Below, in pieces: positions 2,885-40,658 of a DNA stretch of 64,000 bases. A program made the position numbers and the translations under genes. The notes under the pieces were generated by a model. It saw only the letters and a program-made list of their open reading frames with translations. It was not told where the DNA came from and did not search any database. The stretch's first letter is position 1. Each line of letters starts with the position of its first letter. Origin of the DNA: Acidimicrobiales bacterium (GTDB taxonomy: Bacteria > Actinomycetota > Acidimicrobiia > Acidimicrobiales > RAAP-2); assembly GCA_035531955.1 (NCBI GenBank), contig DATKRZ010000103.1, positions 11,972 to 75,971 on the forward strand. The letters run 5' to 3'.

Positions 2885-4084
2885 TCAGGGCAGGCGCTCG
2901 ATCACCATGGCGTTGGACTGGCCTCCCCCTTCACACATCGTCTGGAACCCGTAGCGGCCGCCGACCGCCTCGAGCCGGCTCAGCAGCGACGCGGCCAGGC
3001 GCACCCCGGATGCCCCCAGCGGGTGGCCCATCGCGATGGCGCCCCCGTGGGGGTTGAACACCTCGGGGTCGGGACCGAAGGCACGGGACCACATCAGCGC
3101 GATGGCGGCGAAGGCCTCGTTGCACTCGATGGCATCGAAGTCCCCGACCTTCATCCCCGACCGGTCGAGCAGTCGGTGGGTCACCGGCACCGGGGCGGAC
3201 AGGACGATGGCGGCGTCCTCGGCGGCCACTGCGAAATGGGCGAACCGGGCCCGGATGGGCAACCCGAGGCGCTCGGCCACCGATCGTTCAGCCACCAGCA
3301 TGGCCGCGGCGCCGTCGGTCATCTGGGAGGCGTTCCCGGCGGTGATGTCGGGCGCAGTCTCGGGCTCCCAGGACTGGGCCGGGGGCAGGCCGGCCAATGA
3401 TTCCATCGATCCTCCCCGGCGGATGCCCTCGTCGACGGCGAGCTTCAGCCCGGTGAGCGACCCGTCCTCGGCCTTGGTCGGAACCGGAACGACCTCGCGG
3501 GCGAGAGCGTCGGTGTCCCACGCCGCAGCCGCCCGGCGATGGCTCTCGAGCGAATAGGCGTCCATGTCCCGGCGCGAGATCCCGTAGCGGTCGGCCAGCA
3601 CCTGGGCCACCCGGAACTGGGCCCACAGCCGCCCGTCGATGGCCGAGAGGAAGGACGGAGGGAACGGCCCGGTTCCCCCGCGGGCGTTGCTCGCCATCGG
3701 CACCCGGCTCATCGACTCGACGCCGCAAGCCACTACCAGGTCGTAGTGGCCGGCCACCACGCCGGCGGCGGCAAAGTGCATCGCCTGCTGGGACGACCCG
3801 CACTGCCGGTCCACCGTGGTGGCCGGGACGTGCTGGGGCAGCCCGGCCGACACCCAGGCGTTCCGGGTCACATTGGTGCTCTGCTCCCCGACCTGGGCGA
3901 CGCACCCGCCGATGACGTCGTCGATGGTCGCCGGGTCGACCGCGGTCCGGTCGAGCAGGGAGGAGATGGCGAAGGCGAGCAGGTCGGCAGGGTGCCAGTG
4001 CTGGAGTGCGCCACCCCGCTTGCCGAACGCGGTCCGCACCACGTCGACGACGACCGCGTCGCGGCCTCCGGTGACCGTGCTCAT
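2885..4084 (-). CDS. acetyl-CoA C-acyltransferase (degradative thiolase)
   Basis: Nucleophile context DRQCGSSQQAM, NEAFAA, GHPLGASG, CEGGGQ. 399-aa ORF with ATG at 4084. Confidence 0.92.
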   Translation of the reverse strand: MSTVTGGRDAVVVDVVRTAFGKRGGALQHWHPADLLAFAISSLLDRTAVDPATIDDVIGGCVAQVGEQSTNVTRNAWVSAGLPQHVPATTVDRQCGSSQQAMHFAAAGVVAGHYDLVVACGVESMSRVPMASNARGGTGPFPPSFLSAIDGRLWAQFRVAQVLADRYGISRRDMDAYSLESHRRAAAAWDTDALAREVVPVPTKAEDGSLTGLKLAVDEGIRRGGSMESLAGLPPAQSWEPETAPDITAGNASQMTDGAAAMLVAERSVAERLGLPIRARFAHFAVAAEDAAIVLSAPVPVTHRLLDRSGMKVGDFDAIECNEAFAAIALMWSRAFGPDPEVFNPHGGAIAMGHPLGASGVRLAASLLSRLEAVGGRYGFQTMCEGGGQSNAMVIERLP

Positions 4085-4140
4085 GACTGCTGGCTCATGA
4101 CGGTTGGCTCATGACGGCTGGGCTCATCCTGGTTCCTCCC
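4081..4140 (-). promoter_or_regulatory. SD plus two ATGA-chained mini-ORFs (MSPAVMSQPS 4095-4127; MSQQS 4081-4098) built from a 14/15-nt tandem repeat and ending on the thiolase ATG
   Basis: Minus strand reads GGGAGGAA CCAGG ATGAGCCCAGCCGTCATGAGCCAACCGTCATGAGCCAGCAGTCATGAGCACG. The unit GTCATGAGCC occurs 4 times. The thiolase ATG has no SD of its own. Confidence 0.55.
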
Positions 4141-4175
4141 GGGCACCCGGTTCCTCCGGTTCCCCTCGAGCGAGA

Positions 4176-4934
4176 CTAGGGCAGGTCAACGAGACCCTCC
4201 CAGCCTGCCGGCGGGGGCGCAAGGCGCCAGTACTGCTCCCCCACGTTGGCCTCCAGGCGGGGCGTCAGCGCGTGCTCGGCCTCGAGAGGTGGGATCTGGC
4301 TCGAGTAGCACCAGACGGCCTGCCGTTTGCGCTCGGCATCCGGTTGCTGGGGCACCACAGCCGGGGTGGGCCAGATGCCGGCCCGGAACAGCTTGCCCAC
4401 CCGCCAGGCGAGCAGTCCCGGGAGGTGGGCGTAGCCCGCGTCCTCGTAGCAGAACCAGGCCAGGCTCATCATCCGCCGGCGCACGAGCATTCCGGCGTCG
4501 TGGGCGGTGCCGTGGTCCGGGTTGGCCAGGCCCATGGGCAGGAACACGGCCGTGGCCCCCGCCGACCGGATGGCCGTCTCCAGGTCGGGGGCCACCGCTT
4601 CGGGCGTCGGGCGGTCGGAGAGGGGAAGATACTGGTGCTCCACGAAGTCGAGCCAGACCGGCCGGGCGTCGACGAGTTCCAGCGCGCGACGGTCCTCCTG
4701 GCGGCGGGCACCGACGACGTCGTCACCCGACCGGAAGCCGCCGGCGGCATCCCAGGGCGCGGGCGGATCGGGGTAGCGCGCCGGGAATCCGGCGAACACG
4801 GTCACCACGGTTGACCCGCGGTGGCGCAAGAGGAGGTGGCTCGTGCCGAGCACGGCATCGTCGAGATGCGGTGAGACCACCACGATCCGGCGGAGCAGTT
4901 CCGGTGCCACCAGTCCCCAGGTCGGATCGTCCAT
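4176..4934 (-). CDS. PIG-L/LmbE family deacetylase-like protein
   Basis: VVVSPHLDDAVLG (PHxDD motif) and NPDHGTAHD. ORF 4176..5012 trimmed to ATG at 4934 to avoid overlapping the upstream gene end. Confidence 0.78.
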   Translation of the reverse strand: MDDPTWGLVAPELLRRIVVVSPHLDDAVLGTSHLLLRHRGSTVVTVFAGFPARYPDPPAPWDAAGGFRSGDDVVGARRQEDRRALELVDARPVWLDFVEHQYLPLSDRPTPEAVAPDLETAIRSAGATAVFLPMGLANPDHGTAHDAGMLVRRRMMSLAWFCYEDAGYAHLPGLLAWRVGKLFRAGIWPTPAVVPQQPDAERKRQAVWCYSSQIPPLEAEHALTPRLEANVGEQYWRLAPPPAGWEGLVDLP

Positions 4935-28036: not shown

Positions 28037-28291
28037 ATGGCACCACATCCAGCCCACTCCACGTGGTCGCTGTGGTCGGAGAATTCGGTCTTGTCGATCG
28101 GCAGTCGCGGATCCTTCATGTCAATCGGCTCGATCGGTTCGGCACTCTCGATCGGCTCGGTCGGGTCGTTCCTCTCAGCCTTCTCGATCGGCTCCTTCGG
28201 CTCGGTCGGGTCGGTGCTCTCGGCCGGCTCCCGATCCTCGGTCATGTCATCGAGGTCGCGCAGGGCGATCATGAAGGCCGGACCGGGATAG
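28037..28291 (+). CDS. 84-aa serine-periodic micro-protein, (Ser-X-X)x23
   Basis: MAPHPAH then STW SLW SEN SVL SIG SRG SFM SIG SIG SAL SIG SVG SFL SAF SIG SFG SVG SVL SAG SRS SVM SSR SRR, then AIMKAGPG. The Ser periodicity holds across TCN and AGT codons. The ORF is cleanly bounded, with a low-GC patch and a TAAGAA -10-like box just upstream. The antisense frame is an alternative (see findings). Confidence 0.5.
   Translation: MAPHPAHSTWSLWSENSVLSIGSRGSFMSIGSIGSALSIGSVGSFLSAFSIGSFGSVGSVLSAGSRSSVMSSRSRRAIMKAGPG
28058..28264. repeat. imperfect 9-bp-periodic tandem repeat (core TCGATCGGC, several exact copies)
   Basis: TCGATCGG recurs at about 28094, 28131, 28149 and 28185, with related TCAATCGGC and TCGGTCGGG units. 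The period is a multiple of 3. Confidence 0.7.
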
Positions 28292-37127: not shown

Positions 37128-38372
37128 TCAGCCGGTGGTGGCCGGTTCGAAGGCCACCTTCACCGCCCCGCTCTCCTCCTGGGTGGAGAGGGCGCGGAGG
37201 GCGTCGTGCCAATGGTCGAGCGGGAAGCGGTGGGTGAGCATGCCGGTGAGGTCCACCCGCCCCTCCTGTACGAAGTCGAGATAGTGGCGTATGGCGTGTT
37301 GGCGCACCCCCTCCACCTCCTCGATGCCGAAGGCGTTGGAGCCGACGATGGACAGTTCCTTGAAGTAGATGGGCGTGTACTCCCACCGCCCGGGAGTGTG
37401 CACCCCGGTCTGCACGAGGGAACCGCGCTCGGCGAGCACCCGGACACCGACTTCGAGGGTCTCGGGTCGGGCCACCGTGTCGTAGACCACGTCGATACCT
37501 CCGGGGTGGGCCATCGGTAGCCCGGCGAATGCGGTGTGCAGCACGCCCCCCGACCATTCGGCCAGGGACTCGATCAACTCCAACCTTGGCTCGTGGGGGA
37601 GCACCAGGCCGGCGCCGAACCTGGCGGCCAGGTCGGCCTGGGCGGGGAAGCGGGCCACCACCGCCACCTCCACTTCCGGGTACAGCGAATGCAGGATGGC
37701 GACGCTGGTCACCCCGAGCGCCCCAGCACCGTAGACGAGGGCGCGGCCATTCGGAGGCGGCGGGCAGCGGAGGATGGCGTGAAGTGACACGGCGAACGGA
37801 TCGGCCAGTACCGCCACCTCGTCGGTGACCGAATCGGGAACCGGAATGAGCATCGAGTCGTGGGCCGCCATCAGGTCGGCCCAGCCACCGGGCGCGTCAC
37901 TGGCCACTCCGACGTGGACTCCCGGACCGAGGGCACCGGTGGTGAAACTCCAGCACAGGTTCAGCTCGCCGCGTCGGCAGGCCGGGCACGGCGGATCCAC
38001 CCCACGGGGACCACACGTCAACCACGGATTGAGCAGTACCCGCTGGCCGACCTCGAGGCCCGAGGCATCCGGGCCGAGGCTCACCACCTCGGCTACCACC
38101 TCATGGCCGGGGATGTGGGGAATGGAGGAGAACGCGGCCATCGGATTGTCGATGTCGCCGGTGTCGAAGTCCCCCAGCACGAGCTTGGTCTCCGACCCGC
38201 ACACCCCGGAGAGAAGCGGCCGGGTGATGACCCAGTCTGGACGGACCATCCGGGCGTCATCGACCTCGTGCAGGCCGAAGGGGAGCGAGTCGATCCGGCG
38301 ATCGAGATCGTCGCCCGGACCCTCATGGGCGTCGTCGGCGTCGCGTGGCACGCCGAACACCAGTGCTCTCAT
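37128..38372 (-). CDS. zinc-binding medium-chain alcohol dehydrogenase family protein
   Basis: GHEVVAEVVSLG and the Cys cluster CPACRRGELNLC. 414-aa ORF with ATG at 38372. Confidence 0.88.
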   Translation of the reverse strand: MRALVFGVPRDADDAHEGPGDDLDRRIDSLPFGLHEVDDARMVRPDWVITRPLLSGVCGSETKLVLGDFDTGDIDNPMAAFSSIPHIPGHEVVAEVVSLGPDASGLEVGQRVLLNPWLTCGPRGVDPPCPACRRGELNLCWSFTTGALGPGVHVGVASDAPGGWADLMAAHDSMLIPVPDSVTDEVAVLADPFAVSLHAILRCPPPPNGRALVYGAGALGVTSVAILHSLYPEVEVAVVARFPAQADLAARFGAGLVLPHEPRLELIESLAEWSGGVLHTAFAGLPMAHPGGIDVVYDTVARPETLEVGVRVLAERGSLVQTGVHTPGRWEYTPIYFKELSIVGSNAFGIEEVEGVRQHAIRHYLDFVQEGRVDLTGMLTHRFPLDHWHDALRALSTQEESGAVKVAFEPATTG

Positions 38373-38428
38373 CGACGGCAGTTTCTCATCGGCGACACAG
38401 CTTCATCGGTGACACGGTAGCCACCTCC
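38369..38428 (-). promoter_or_regulatory. SD plus two ATGA-chained mini-ORFs ((V)SPMKLCRR 38386-38415; MRNCRR 38369-38389) built from a 17-nt tandem repeat and ending on the ADH ATG
   Basis: Minus strand reads GGAGG TGGCTACC GTGTCACCGATGAAGCTGTGTCGCCGATGAGAAACTGCCGTCGATGAGAGCACTG. Three CG(Y)CGATGA units are spaced 17 nt apart. The ADH ATG has no SD of its own. Confidence 0.55.
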
Positions 38429-38445
38429 GAGCCCGGTCGGCACGG

Positions 38446-40101
38446 TCAGGCCAGCATGGCCGCAGCGGAGCGGGCCGCCAGGGCGGCCAAGGTCAGAGTG
38501 GGTCCGTAGCCCGAGGAGGTGACGAAGACCGAGGAGTCGGCGATGACCACGTTCTCCAACTGGTGGAGCCGCCCGTGGCCGTCGGCCACCGACGTCGCCG
38601 GGTCCGTCCCCATCCGAACCGTGCCCATGACATGGCGGCTCATGGGCGCATGCTCGGTGGTGCGGCCCCCCGGCCCTCCGGCGGTCCCGGGCGAGGTGAC
38701 GATGGAGGTCCAGCCCGCGCCCATGACCTCGAGGATTGCGGCCAACCGGGGGCCATGGTGGGCGGCGGCGGCCAGCTCGTGGCGGTGGGGCTTGTAGGTG
38801 TAGCGGGCGACGGGGAAGCCCCGGACGTCACGGATGGTCGGGTCCAGGTCGATCCGGTTGGTGGCCACCGGGAGGTCCTCCCCCTGCATGGTGAAGGCCC
38901 ACATCCGGTCGCGCATGGGCGACGAGCGCATGCTCTCCTTGTGGGACCGTCCCCACGGGTAGATCTTCGCCTCGAGGATGGGGAGCGATGGCCCACCGTG
39001 CTCGACCATCCCCCCCTTGATCCAGGGAAGCCCTGCCTCCTTGGCCGCGGCCCGCGAGGCGTCGTCGGGGACCAGGGCGTCGTCCTGCATCTCGGTGACC
39101 GCCCGGCCCCGCTCGCCGTGAAGGCGGAGGTGGGCGAAACCGCCCACCACGATGGTCTGGAAGTGGGTCATCAGGTGCCGGCCGATCAGCGGATGGTCGA
39201 TCCCCGACAGAAGCAGCAGACGCGGGGTCTCGACCGCTCCGCCCGCCACCACCACATGTCGGGCGTCCATCGAGTGCTCGATGCCGTCGGGGCCGATGTA
39301 GTCCACCCCGGTGGCGCGATCGCCCGCGGTTCGTATCCGGGACACGAAGGTCTCCGGCCGGAGCTCGGCGTTCCCGGTCAGGAGGGCCCGCTGCAACATG
39401 GCCACCGGGTCTCCCTTGGCGTGGATCGGGCAGCCGAAGAAGGCGCAGAACCCACAGTTGTTGCAGGCGGGCCGGCCGTCGTAGTGCTCGGAATTGGTGG
39501 CGCCCGGAGCCGGGTAGGGATGGAACCCGAGGGACTCGGCGGCTGCCGATGACAGGTTCGAGCCGTACATCGACGGCCCTGGCGGCATGGGGTACGGGCC
39601 CGACCGCCATGCCGCGAACGGGTTGGCGCCCGCTTGCCCGGAGACGCCGATCATGCGTTCGGCCTCGGCATAGAAGGGCTCGAGCTCGGCATAGTCGAGG
39701 GGCCAGTCGGCCACGGACGCACCCTCGTGGGGGCCGCGGCTGGTCAGCATGGCGAAATCCTCTTCGCGGAAGCGGGGGACCTTGCCGTCGGCATGGGTGC
39801 CCCCGCCTCCGACGGTGGAGGGGATGGAGTTCACCTCCCCCACGAAGGAGTGGTCACCGTCGTCGGGACCGACCCGGAAGGTGCGCGGCTCGAGGAACGG
39901 GTCGGGACCGAGGAAGTGGCGATCGATGAACTTGATCTCGTCGTTCGAGAAGTCGCCCAGCAGCCGGGCGGGCTCGTCGAGATCGATCAGATGGTTGCGG
40001 CCCTTCTCGAAGATCACCACCGACCATCCGGCCGCGGTCAGCACGTCGGCGGCAGTCGCTCCCCCGGGCCCGGACCCGACGACGATGGCGTCGGCGGTCA
40101 C
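38446..40101 (-). CDS. GMC family FAD oxidoreductase
   Basis: AIVVGSGPGGATAADVLTAAGWSVVIFEKG. GTG at 40101 overlaps the upstream stop (GTGA). Confidence 0.9.
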   Translation of the reverse strand: MTADAIVVGSGPGGATAADVLTAAGWSVVIFEKGRNHLIDLDEPARLLGDFSNDEIKFIDRHFLGPDPFLEPRTFRVGPDDGDHSFVGEVNSIPSTVGGGGTHADGKVPRFREEDFAMLTSRGPHEGASVADWPLDYAELEPFYAEAERMIGVSGQAGANPFAAWRSGPYPMPPGPSMYGSNLSSAAAESLGFHPYPAPGATNSEHYDGRPACNNCGFCAFFGCPIHAKGDPVAMLQRALLTGNAELRPETFVSRIRTAGDRATGVDYIGPDGIEHSMDARHVVVAGGAVETPRLLLLSGIDHPLIGRHLMTHFQTIVVGGFAHLRLHGERGRAVTEMQDDALVPDDASRAAAKEAGLPWIKGGMVEHGGPSLPILEAKIYPWGRSHKESMRSSPMRDRMWAFTMQGEDLPVATNRIDLDPTIRDVRGFPVARYTYKPHRHELAAAAHHGPRLAAILEVMGAGWTSIVTSPGTAGGPGGRTTEHAPMSRHVMGTVRMGTDPATSVADGHGRLHQLENVVIADSSVFVTSSGYGPTLTLAALAARSAAAMLA

Positions 40102-40658
40102 GGCTCCGAGACCTCCCGGTCGGTCCATCCCCGGGGCTGGACGTCACCGGCGAACCCGATGTTCGACCATCCGACCCCGTCCCGGTTCCCCCCGTACTCG
40201 GGTGCCCCGTACATGCCCTCGCAGGCGTGCCCGTAGACCAGCCCGGTGAAGTCGGGGTCGGCATGGAGCCGGGCACCCTGTTCCTCGGGGCCGCAGTCGG
40301 CGAAGTCGGGCCCGAGCGCGGCCAGACCGGCCCGGTAGCGCTCCTGCAGACCGACCACCGGGCCGTTGAACTCGCGCTCGGGCAGGCCGAGCGAGCCTTC
40401 GATCCGGGTGCGCCAGGCCAGCTCGTCCAGAGCGGTGAGAGGATGGAACCCGGCGAATCCGCCCGGGCCACCGAATCGTCCCGAGGCCGGACCACCGGCC
40501 CAGATCCGCGGTGGATCGAAGGAGAACGCACCCAGAAGACCGTCGATGTAGTCGGCGACGCCGGCGTCCGTCGCCCCGGGCGTATGGTCGGCGGGAATGA
40601 GTCGCTCGCACACCGCGGTCAGCGTCCGGTACTCGTCGTCTGTCAACCAGGTCGCCAC
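40098..40658 (-). CDS. gluconate 2-dehydrogenase subunit 3-like small subunit
   Basis: LTDDEYRTLTAVCERLIPADHTPGATDAGVADYIDGLL. Directly coupled to the GMC gene. No twin-arginine leader visible. Confidence 0.78.
   Translation of the reverse strand: MATWLTDDEYRTLTAVCERLIPADHTPGATDAGVADYIDGLLGAFSFDPPRIWAGGPASGRFGGPGGFAGFHPLTALDELAWRTRIEGSLGLPEREFNGPVVGLQERYRAGLAALGPDFADCGPEEQGARLHADPDFTGLVYGHACEGMYGAPEYGGNRDGVGWSNIGFAGDVQPRGWTDREVSEP

Follow-up and report, generated by a model that had tools for sequence, protein, structure and literature searches.

How do ribosomes reach a gene whose start codon has no Shine-Dalgarno (SD) sequence of its own and stands at the end of a run of short tandem repeats? 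The question is raised by a thiolase gene (locus 1) on the minus strand of a 64,000-nt stretch of Acidimicrobiales DNA (contig DATKRZ010000103.1, positions 11,972 to 75,971; hereafter the window), and again by a Zn-dependent dehydrogenase gene of the same window (locus 2), each preceded by a chain of very short open reading frames (mini-ORFs) in which the stop codon of one overlaps the start codon of the next within the tetranucleotide ATGA (Table 1). From the sequence comparisons described below we put at roughly 60% the probability that tandem duplication moved the SD sequence away from the gene and that ribosomes reach the gene by termination-reinitiation (TeRe) at ATGA overlaps preserved by selection.

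Read on the minus strand, the thiolase leader consists of GGGAGGAA (4140-4133), CCAGG, ATGAGCCCAGCCGTC (4127-4113), ATGAGCCAACCGTC (4112-4099), ATGAGCCAGCAGTC (4098-4085) and ATGAGCACG (from 4084), exactly as an earlier sequence-only reading of the window had reported, and translation confirmed the two mini-ORFs of that reading, MSPAVMSQPS and MSQQS (peptides are written here without their stop), as well as the ATGA that joins them. The repeated unit begins with ATGA and its length is 2 mod 3, so that every copy makes a full mini-ORF and its TGA falls on the ATG of the copy that follows. Tandem Repeats Finder scored the array (4079-4127; period 14, 3.4 copies, 88% matches) at 75, the second-highest score in the 64-kb window.

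A misplaced thiolase start can be dismissed, as the N-termini of orthologues align to 4084 and no alternative start precedes the RDAVVVD strand. The ATG at 4084 is the first start following the in-frame stop, the gene calls of public assemblies begin there too, and 120 thiolase homologues start 1-8 residues before the conserved R-D/E-A-V-V/I-V/I-D strand (typically MSTEGRDAVVVD); judged from these alignments, the start is secure. An SD core of at least 4 nt at positions -17 to -4 from the thiolase start was found in none of the five alleles of the repeat-bearing clade, versus 68 of 74 other, more distant orthologues that are without the repeat, which bears out the earlier statement that no SD belongs to the thiolase ATG itself. 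In the same five alleles the SD core GGAGGAA keeps its 5-nt spacing to the ATG of the first mini-ORF. The simplest history would be that the gene once started with a plain SD-ATG arrangement and that a 14-nt unit containing the start was then duplicated within it.

The thiolase repeat is confined to the closest relatives, whose thiolase DNA is 92-93% identical to that of the window; a DNA pattern scan of metagenomes for additional alleles returned two contigs, one of them new. Two alleles hold a single 14-nt unit (upstream ORF, or uORF, MSQPS in contig L004 and MSRLS in L084), L083 holds two (14+14 nt; MSQPS and MSQPA), and the window and L003 hold three each (15+14+14 nt and 15+15+14 nt, respectively). 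The junction at the gene start is ATGA throughout, save in L083, in which the gene starts with GTG and the junction reads GTGA. The internal unit heads of L003 have mutated to GTG and GTC and, because two of its units are 15 nt long, its array forms a single 15-codon uORF (MSPAVVSPAVVSRPS) whose end still overlaps the gene start by ATGA. Through ATGA or GTGA overlaps, an unbroken path leads from the SD-led ATG to the gene start in all five alleles. The gain or loss of units with the chain left intact, which had been predicted from the window, is thereby seen in nature, with 1, 1, 2, 3 and 3 units among the thiolase alleles and 2, 4 and 5 among those of the dehydrogenase.

In one respect the sequence-only reading has to be amended: the SD at 4133-4140, which it took to be the only one, is accompanied by an identical GGAGGAA at 4157-4151 that precedes a GTG-started uORF of 21 codons, whose frame is that of the ATG at 4098. 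Among the other alleles this outer GGAGGAA is present in L003, reads GGAGG in L083 and is missing from L004 and L084, and the frame of the 21-codon uORF relative to the thiolase varies. The two SD-plus-start modules (4144-4157 and 4128-4140, minus strand), GGAGGAACC-GG-GTG and GGAGGAACC-AGG-ATG, lie 17 nt apart and look duplicated, with about 13 of 18 positions identical by eye. The upstream RTG shares its frame with a mini-ORF in the window and in L083 and with the thiolase itself in L003, L004 and L084, where it would yield an N-terminally extended protein.

The dehydrogenase locus (38369-38428) has the same layout, as had been noted, and relatives bear four or five units there. The window's two 17-nt units are identical at 11 of 17 positions (65%) and were not detected by Tandem Repeats Finder, and still both are exactly 17 nt long with ATGA intact. 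No SD-like motif was found inside the locus 2 units (…GTGTCACCG ATG). A TACCGT hexamer sits 7 nt before the first uORF ATG, within a motif, TGGCTACCGTGTC, that is kept in all examined dehydrogenase orthologues retaining the GMC-oxidoreductase neighbour (about 83-94% DNA identity), although the surrounding spacer is not conserved; this motif could be a candidate internal promoter from which a leaderless uORF would be transcribed, or a signal of another kind. As at the thiolase, two or more upstream frames lead to the gene start here.

All dehydrogenase alleles with units, two in the window, four in L086-L089 and five in L090, are chained. The L086-L089 contigs, from four samples, carry four near-identical 17-nt units (ATGAAGCCGTGTCACCG, MKPCHR) linked by ATGA, and L089 belongs to the same metagenome-assembled genome (MAG; contig prefix DATBOO01) as L004 with its single thiolase unit. 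The units of L090 measure 17, 15, 17, 17 and 17 nt (MKPFHR, MKQCPMKQCH, MKQCHR, MKPCRS), and one of its junctions is TGATG. More distant orthologues (L091-L097, about 83-85% DNA identity) are without the repeat and have one uORF of 19-21 codons, whose peptide varies between lineages and yet whose end is always ATGA or GTGA on the gene start; its start always lies 4 nt past TGGCTACCGTGTC. Before this uORF the distant orthologues show the conserved TACCGT motif only, GGAGG being limited to the repeat clade. Since repeat-free orthologues are still coupled to an upstream ORF, coupling of the dehydrogenase predates the repeat. In a further group with an 85%-identical dehydrogenase and different synteny (L098-L100) an SDR gene takes the place of the GMC oxidoreductase upstream; the SDR stop and the dehydrogenase start overlap as TGATG, and the SDR gene contains a GGAGG. 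The dehydrogenase is consequently coupled to different upstream ORFs in different lineages.

To compare the junctions with the rest of the repeat, we aligned all 21 units to the consensus of their locus. The ATGA heads on the relay path were substituted at 0 of 68 sites and the remaining unit positions (tails) at 30 of 241, while heads off the path were substituted at 3 of 16 sites, all in L003. In a test that ignores shared ancestry, the pooled binomial P is about 0.0006, with 0.003 for locus 2 alone and 0.18 for locus 1 alone. The fixed bases of each unit are ATGA plus one to three that follow, the tails varying freely, and ATGA is the only motif common to the units of both loci. Among the repeat-bearing alleles compared, neither gene start has acquired an SD beside it. 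These patterns are no more than suggestive of selection that keeps the start/stop overlaps on the path intact.

We propose that a short unit bearing a start codon (14/15 nt at the thiolase, 17 nt at the dehydrogenase) was duplicated in tandem in an intercistronic operon spacer and that, at the thiolase, the duplication would have shifted the ancestral SD off the gene's own ATG. Ribosomes would most likely start at the SD-led first mini-ORF, possibly also at the SD-led GTG uORF, and would then terminate at TGA and reinitiate at the overlapping ATG, one or more times, until they arrive at the gene; selection would preserve each overlap on the path, while the number of units, their length (14 or 15) and the peptides would drift between lineages. 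Reinitiation is the most likely mode of ribosome delivery as judged from attributes that both loci have in common with TeRe pairs: the stop and start codons overlap (all window junctions are ATGA, those of relatives ATGA, GTGA or TGATG), the chain has an initiation signal of its own (GGGAGGAA in 5/5 thiolase alleles, GGAGG at the dehydrogenase in the repeat clade only), and the downstream ORF has no ribosome binding site (RBS). That the downstream ORF would depend on translation and termination of the upstream one, with two separate polypeptides being made, is supported indirectly, and solely by the unsubstituted on-path junctions (0/68). Known RNA elements and structured leaders were rejected as candidates, as the Rfam 15 covariance models gave no match with E <=1 at either locus and the minimum free energy of the leaders did not fall below the values for shuffles (z = +1.34 and +0.18). 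Unstructured leaders with no Rfam match fit a translated spacer, not a riboswitch-like element. Scans for sigma-70 consensus promoters and intrinsic terminators returned nothing at either locus.

The sequence-only reading had expected such chains to occur more often than by chance, and this held for a strict definition and failed for a permissive one. Strict chains (ORFs started by ATG only, no longer than 10 codons, joined by ATGA at two or more junctions) number three in the window, namely the two loci and the antisense image of the thiolase array, which arises because TCATGA is a palindrome, compared to an average of 0.38 in Markov-2 shuffles; two of them end at long ORFs versus 0.145 expected, a number reached by 2% of the Markov-2 shuffles. 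Permissive chains (GTG allowed, up to 25 codons) were not enriched, with 15 observed in the window versus 47.6 expected. With strict chains above the shuffles and permissive ones not enriched, the signal therefore lies in the repeats and in their position at true gene starts, not in ORF chains as such.

Several points weigh against the proposed route. About 550 kb of related Acidimicrobiales DNA yielded no further strict chain, and ATGA-bearing arrays in viral contigs showed no excess of 3n+2 periods among the matches listed, a weak test, as these matches were dominated by AT-rich intergenic repeats. Apart from ignoring shared ancestry, the substitution test draws all its off-path changes from L003 and does not reach significance at locus 1 alone. 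Direct SD-independent initiation at the gene ATG is possible, and a run of four or five reinitiations without an SD could work poorly and might cost much expression; in most E. coli gene pairs tested, removing the SD cut reinitiation by 60-90% (PMC6728339). We consider it unlikely, though far from negligible, that the arrays are neutral slippage debris, the gene ATG being used directly or by ribosomes sliding from the upstream SD and the mini-ORFs being a by-product without a role. Such debris would be in keeping with the lack of enrichment of permissive chains and with the density of unrelated tandem repeats upstream of the same thiolase in other lineages (4.8% of bases in the 150 nt before the gene versus 1.0% elsewhere, across 76 orthologous loci, about fivefold); the mutational source is therefore common, and the repeats as such have the look of a frequent outcome of mutation. 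It would also accommodate viral arrays abutting ORFs of at least 80 codons about equally often with 3n+1 and 3n+2 periods (5.7, 6.2, 2.4 and 2.3% for periods 13, 14, 16 and 17, among the matches listed), and the report that, of the M. tuberculosis ORFs whose initiation takes place at NUGA or URRUG overlaps, about 58% are without a canonical SD (bioRxiv 10.1101/2022.06.01.494293). Debris does not readily explain why on-path ATGA heads remain free of substitutions when tails and off-path heads do not, why the spacing from SD to first mini-ORF ATG is exact in 5/5 alleles with no SD evolved beside the gene ATG, or why locus 2 units that have diverged to 11/17 identity still are both 17 nt long with an intact ATGA.

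The sequence-only reading also saw in copy number a means of regulatory tuning, a claim left unsupported by independent assemblies of one population, which have identical arrays. That slippage should alter the number of reinitiation steps or entry points and so tune a distal operon gene within populations, as an adaptive rheostat or contingency device, seems improbable to us. Copy number does differ independently at the two loci (one thiolase and four dehydrogenase units in the DATBOO01 MAG versus three and two in the window), the four L086-type units are almost identical, suggesting recent expansion, and the gene is reachable at all copy numbers. Against this, the thiolase arrays of L001 and L002 and the dehydrogenase arrays of L576-L578 are those of the window, L086-L089 all have four units, and array differences are seen only between lineages about 7-10% diverged in DNA, with no variation within a population among the assemblies compared. 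An assembly artefact can be set aside, the arrays being identical in independent ENA, JGI and NCBI assemblies. Fast within-species variation was considered for L003 and L083, whose thiolase bodies are 99.3% identical and whose arrays differ, and was discarded: the end of the PIG-L gene and the spacer are only about 90% identical, and the difference is explained by a homologous-recombination breakpoint, not hypermutation. Identity between these two contigs changes sharply at the thiolase 5' end (L003:2600-3120 versus L083:20-540), at or near the repeat array. With 2-5 copies of 14-17-nt units, the arrays are, moreover, short for high slippage rates. A tunable regulatory device is possible, with no direct support for it at present. 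It is doubtful, too, that the arrays make up a distinct translational element, a frame-proof, self-propagating minisatellite, each unit a complete start-to-stop link, that would funnel ribosomes entering at any unit and in any frame to the gene start, let unit number set the expression of the last operon gene (by attenuation at each step or by added entry sites) and be maintained by selection in an Acidimicrobiales lineage. Regulatory leader peptides, in which ribosome stalling would control the downstream gene (for example by Cys-responsive attenuation at the dehydrogenase), are very improbable. One Cys codon is present in 10 of 11 locus 2 mini-ORF units and in the 21-codon uORF of L091-L097, the TACCGT placed 7 nt upstream of the first ATG might be compatible with a leaderless start, and Cys-rich leaderless short ORF (sORF) attenuators exist in mycobacteria (bioRxiv 10.1101/834739); but there are no consecutive Cys codons and at most one Cys per locus 2 mini-ORF, none in the L093 uORF, unit 1 of L090 or the locus 1 peptides, the peptides are not conserved between lineages, and no terminator-like or alternative-hairpin structure was found in leaders that fold no more stably than shuffles. 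Scarcely credible, finally, is the notion that the direct repeats are DNA-level binding sites for a transcription factor (iteron- or operator-like) and the ORF pattern incidental: they do lie in an intergenic spacer, and a TetR-family gene adjoins the thiolase cluster, but neither 14/15 nor 17 bp corresponds to a helical repeat, only ATGA with its one to three following bases is fixed while tails vary freely, the two loci share no motif beyond ATGA, and unit number spans 1 to 5.

As to novelty, the sequence-only reading was not aware of any description of such a relay, which holds in the open-access literature for the repeat-built form and not for the basic junction mechanism. The M. tuberculosis PPE2 gene has no SD, shares an AUGA with an out-of-frame uORF and requires translation of that uORF for its expression, which proceeds mainly via TeRe (PMC11260477), and NUGA/URRUG overlaps, including overlaps between uORFs, are widespread in that species (bioRxiv 10.1101/2022.06.01.494293). 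The uPPE2-PPE2 pair resembles the loci studied here in being actinobacterial and in joining an SD-less main ORF to a uORF by AUGA (PMC11260477), and differs in having a single uORF of ordinary sequence under riboswitch control, with no tandem repeats, no multi-step chain and no known copy-number variation. The M. tuberculosis overlaps and the TeRe pairs of E. coli and Haloferax volcanii (PMC6728339) have the same junction types (here 4-nt NUGA plus one 1-nt TGATG in L090), frequently SD-less downstream ORFs and the same proposed mechanism; those pairs, however, consist of unrelated ORFs, whereas here two to five nearly identical ORFs of 5-6 codons derive from one repeated unit, and, unlike in those pairs, the number of links differs between lineages. 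Polycysteine leaderless sORF attenuators are likewise short ORFs upstream of actinobacterial operon genes, and locus 2 units carry a Cys codon, but those sORFs contain consecutive Cys runs and act by attenuation, whereas the units here have at most one Cys (none at locus 1) and no attenuator structure (bioRxiv 10.1101/834739).

A different kind of likeness is to simple sequence repeat (SSR) contingency loci. Examples are found in Haemophilus and Neisseria, where genes carry tetranucleotide or pentanucleotide repeats in the 5' part of their coding region. As in SSR phase variation (PMC12721329), a repeat tract (with units of 14 or 15 nt at the thiolase and 17 nt at the dehydrogenase) lies at the gene 5' end, the unit is not a multiple of three and copy number is changed by slippage. 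In contingency loci a change of copy number shifts the frame and turns the gene off or on, whereas here each unit has its own start and stop, so that by sequence logic all observed copy numbers from 1 to 5, with every mix of 14-, 15- and 17-nt units, leave an unbroken path; nor, unlike in those loci, does copy number vary within populations in the assemblies compared. In the open-access literature we found no description of a chain of two to five mini-ORFs made from one tandemly repeated start-to-stop unit, of such a chain at two unrelated genes of one lineage, or of copy-number differences between lineages that never break the path. What is described here is a known coupling mechanism in a form built from repeats, and is not proven to be a new regulator.

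On the proposed TeRe route, a gene can stay active after a tandem duplication across its start codon, as a unit that is headed by ATGA and has a length of 2 mod 3 builds its own translational bridge; the two loci would illustrate how start-proximal duplications can be rescued by translational coupling. Natural alleles with one to five links could serve as a series for measuring the per-step efficiency of SD-less TeRe in Actinobacteria, a quantity still missing in the field, where quantification of reinitiation efficiency has been called for (PMC6728339). There is a warning for annotation as well, in that gene callers place the start correctly and give no sign of an RBS 43-85 nt upstream behind unannotated mini-ORFs. 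Should expression turn out to be tuned by copy number, the arrays would represent a new type of control by repeats, one under which the gene is never switched off.

Table 1. Features at the two loci (window coordinates; peptides without stop)
Feature	Position	Strand	Basis and remarks
First SD-like GGAGGAA	4151..4157	-	Direct reading; 6 nt 5' of GTG 4146-4144
Second SD GGGAGGAA (core GGAGGAA)	4133..4140	-	5 nt 5' of mini-ORF 1 ATG (4127); spacing equal in 5/5 alleles
GTG-started 21-codon uORF, VPGRNQDEPSRHEPTVMSQQS	4081..4146	-	Translation; TGA (4083-4081) overlaps thiolase ATG
Tandem repeat array, units of 15/14/14 nt similar to ATGAGCC(C)AGCCGTC, continuing into the ATGAGC of the gene itself	4079..4127	-	Tandem Repeats Finder
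Mini-ORF 1, MSPAVMSQPS, in-frame internal ATG at 4112	4095..4127	-	Translation; TGA (4097-4095) overlaps ATG 4098
Mini-ORF 2, MSQQS	4081..4098	-	Translation; TGA (4083-4081) overlaps thiolase ATG 4084
Thiolase gene, 399 aa, Thiolase_N and Thiolase_C domains	2885..4084	-	ORF list, gene calls in public assemblies
PIG-L family gene, 5' of thiolase	4176..4934	-	L001 gene call mapped to window, and ORF list; TAG stop 91 nt before thiolase ATG
SD-like GGAGG, locus 2	38424..38428	-	8 nt 5' of GTG 38415; restricted to repeat-bearing clade
Motif TGGCTACCGTGTC, includes TANNNT-type hexamer TACCGT	38411..38423	-	Conserved; 4 nt before first uORF ATG
Locus 2 mini-ORF 1, (V)SPMKLCRR, ATG at 38406	38386..38415	-	Translation; TGA (38388-38386) overlaps ATG 38389
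Locus 2 mini-ORF 2, MRNCRR	38369..38389	-	Translation; TGA (38371-38369) overlaps dehydrogenase ATG 38372
GTG-started 24-codon ORF	38369..38443	-	Starts 2 nt after GMC-oxidoreductase stop; ends at dehydrogenase ATGA junction
Zn-dependent alcohol/threonine-dehydrogenase-like gene, 414 aa	37128..38372	-	ORF and homologues
GMC oxidoreductase gene, 5' of dehydrogenase	38446..40128	-	73-nt spacer to dehydrogenase

Both genes are the last of their same-strand clusters, the thiolase following SDR, CoA-transferase and PIG-L genes and the 91-nt spacer, and the dehydrogenase following the GMC oxidoreductase gene and the 73-nt spacer, and the proteins of both match those of uncultured Acidimicrobiales MAGs. 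Repeats of other kinds were observed 100-150 nt before the thiolase start in L008, L018, L025, L026 and L046 (16 nt x5.5, 33 nt x3, 27 nt x2, 15 nt x3.5 and 15 nt x6). Look-alikes of the chains occur in viral contigs (L111:2146-2189, L117:1904-1947, L296 on the minus strand at about 453-540, L312:865-922, L453:17-82 and L404:9795-9860) as three to five tandem units of 13, 14 or 17 nt, each headed by ATGA, with the array ending at the ATG of a predicted ORF of 80-770 codons; some units, in L117 and L296, have their own GAGGA SD-like motif. The top-scoring tandem repeat of the window itself (28125-28231; period 9/36, about three copies of a 36-nt unit, score 102) lies within a stretch of lower G+C content (0.65-0.68 at 24-32 kb versus about 0.70 elsewhere).

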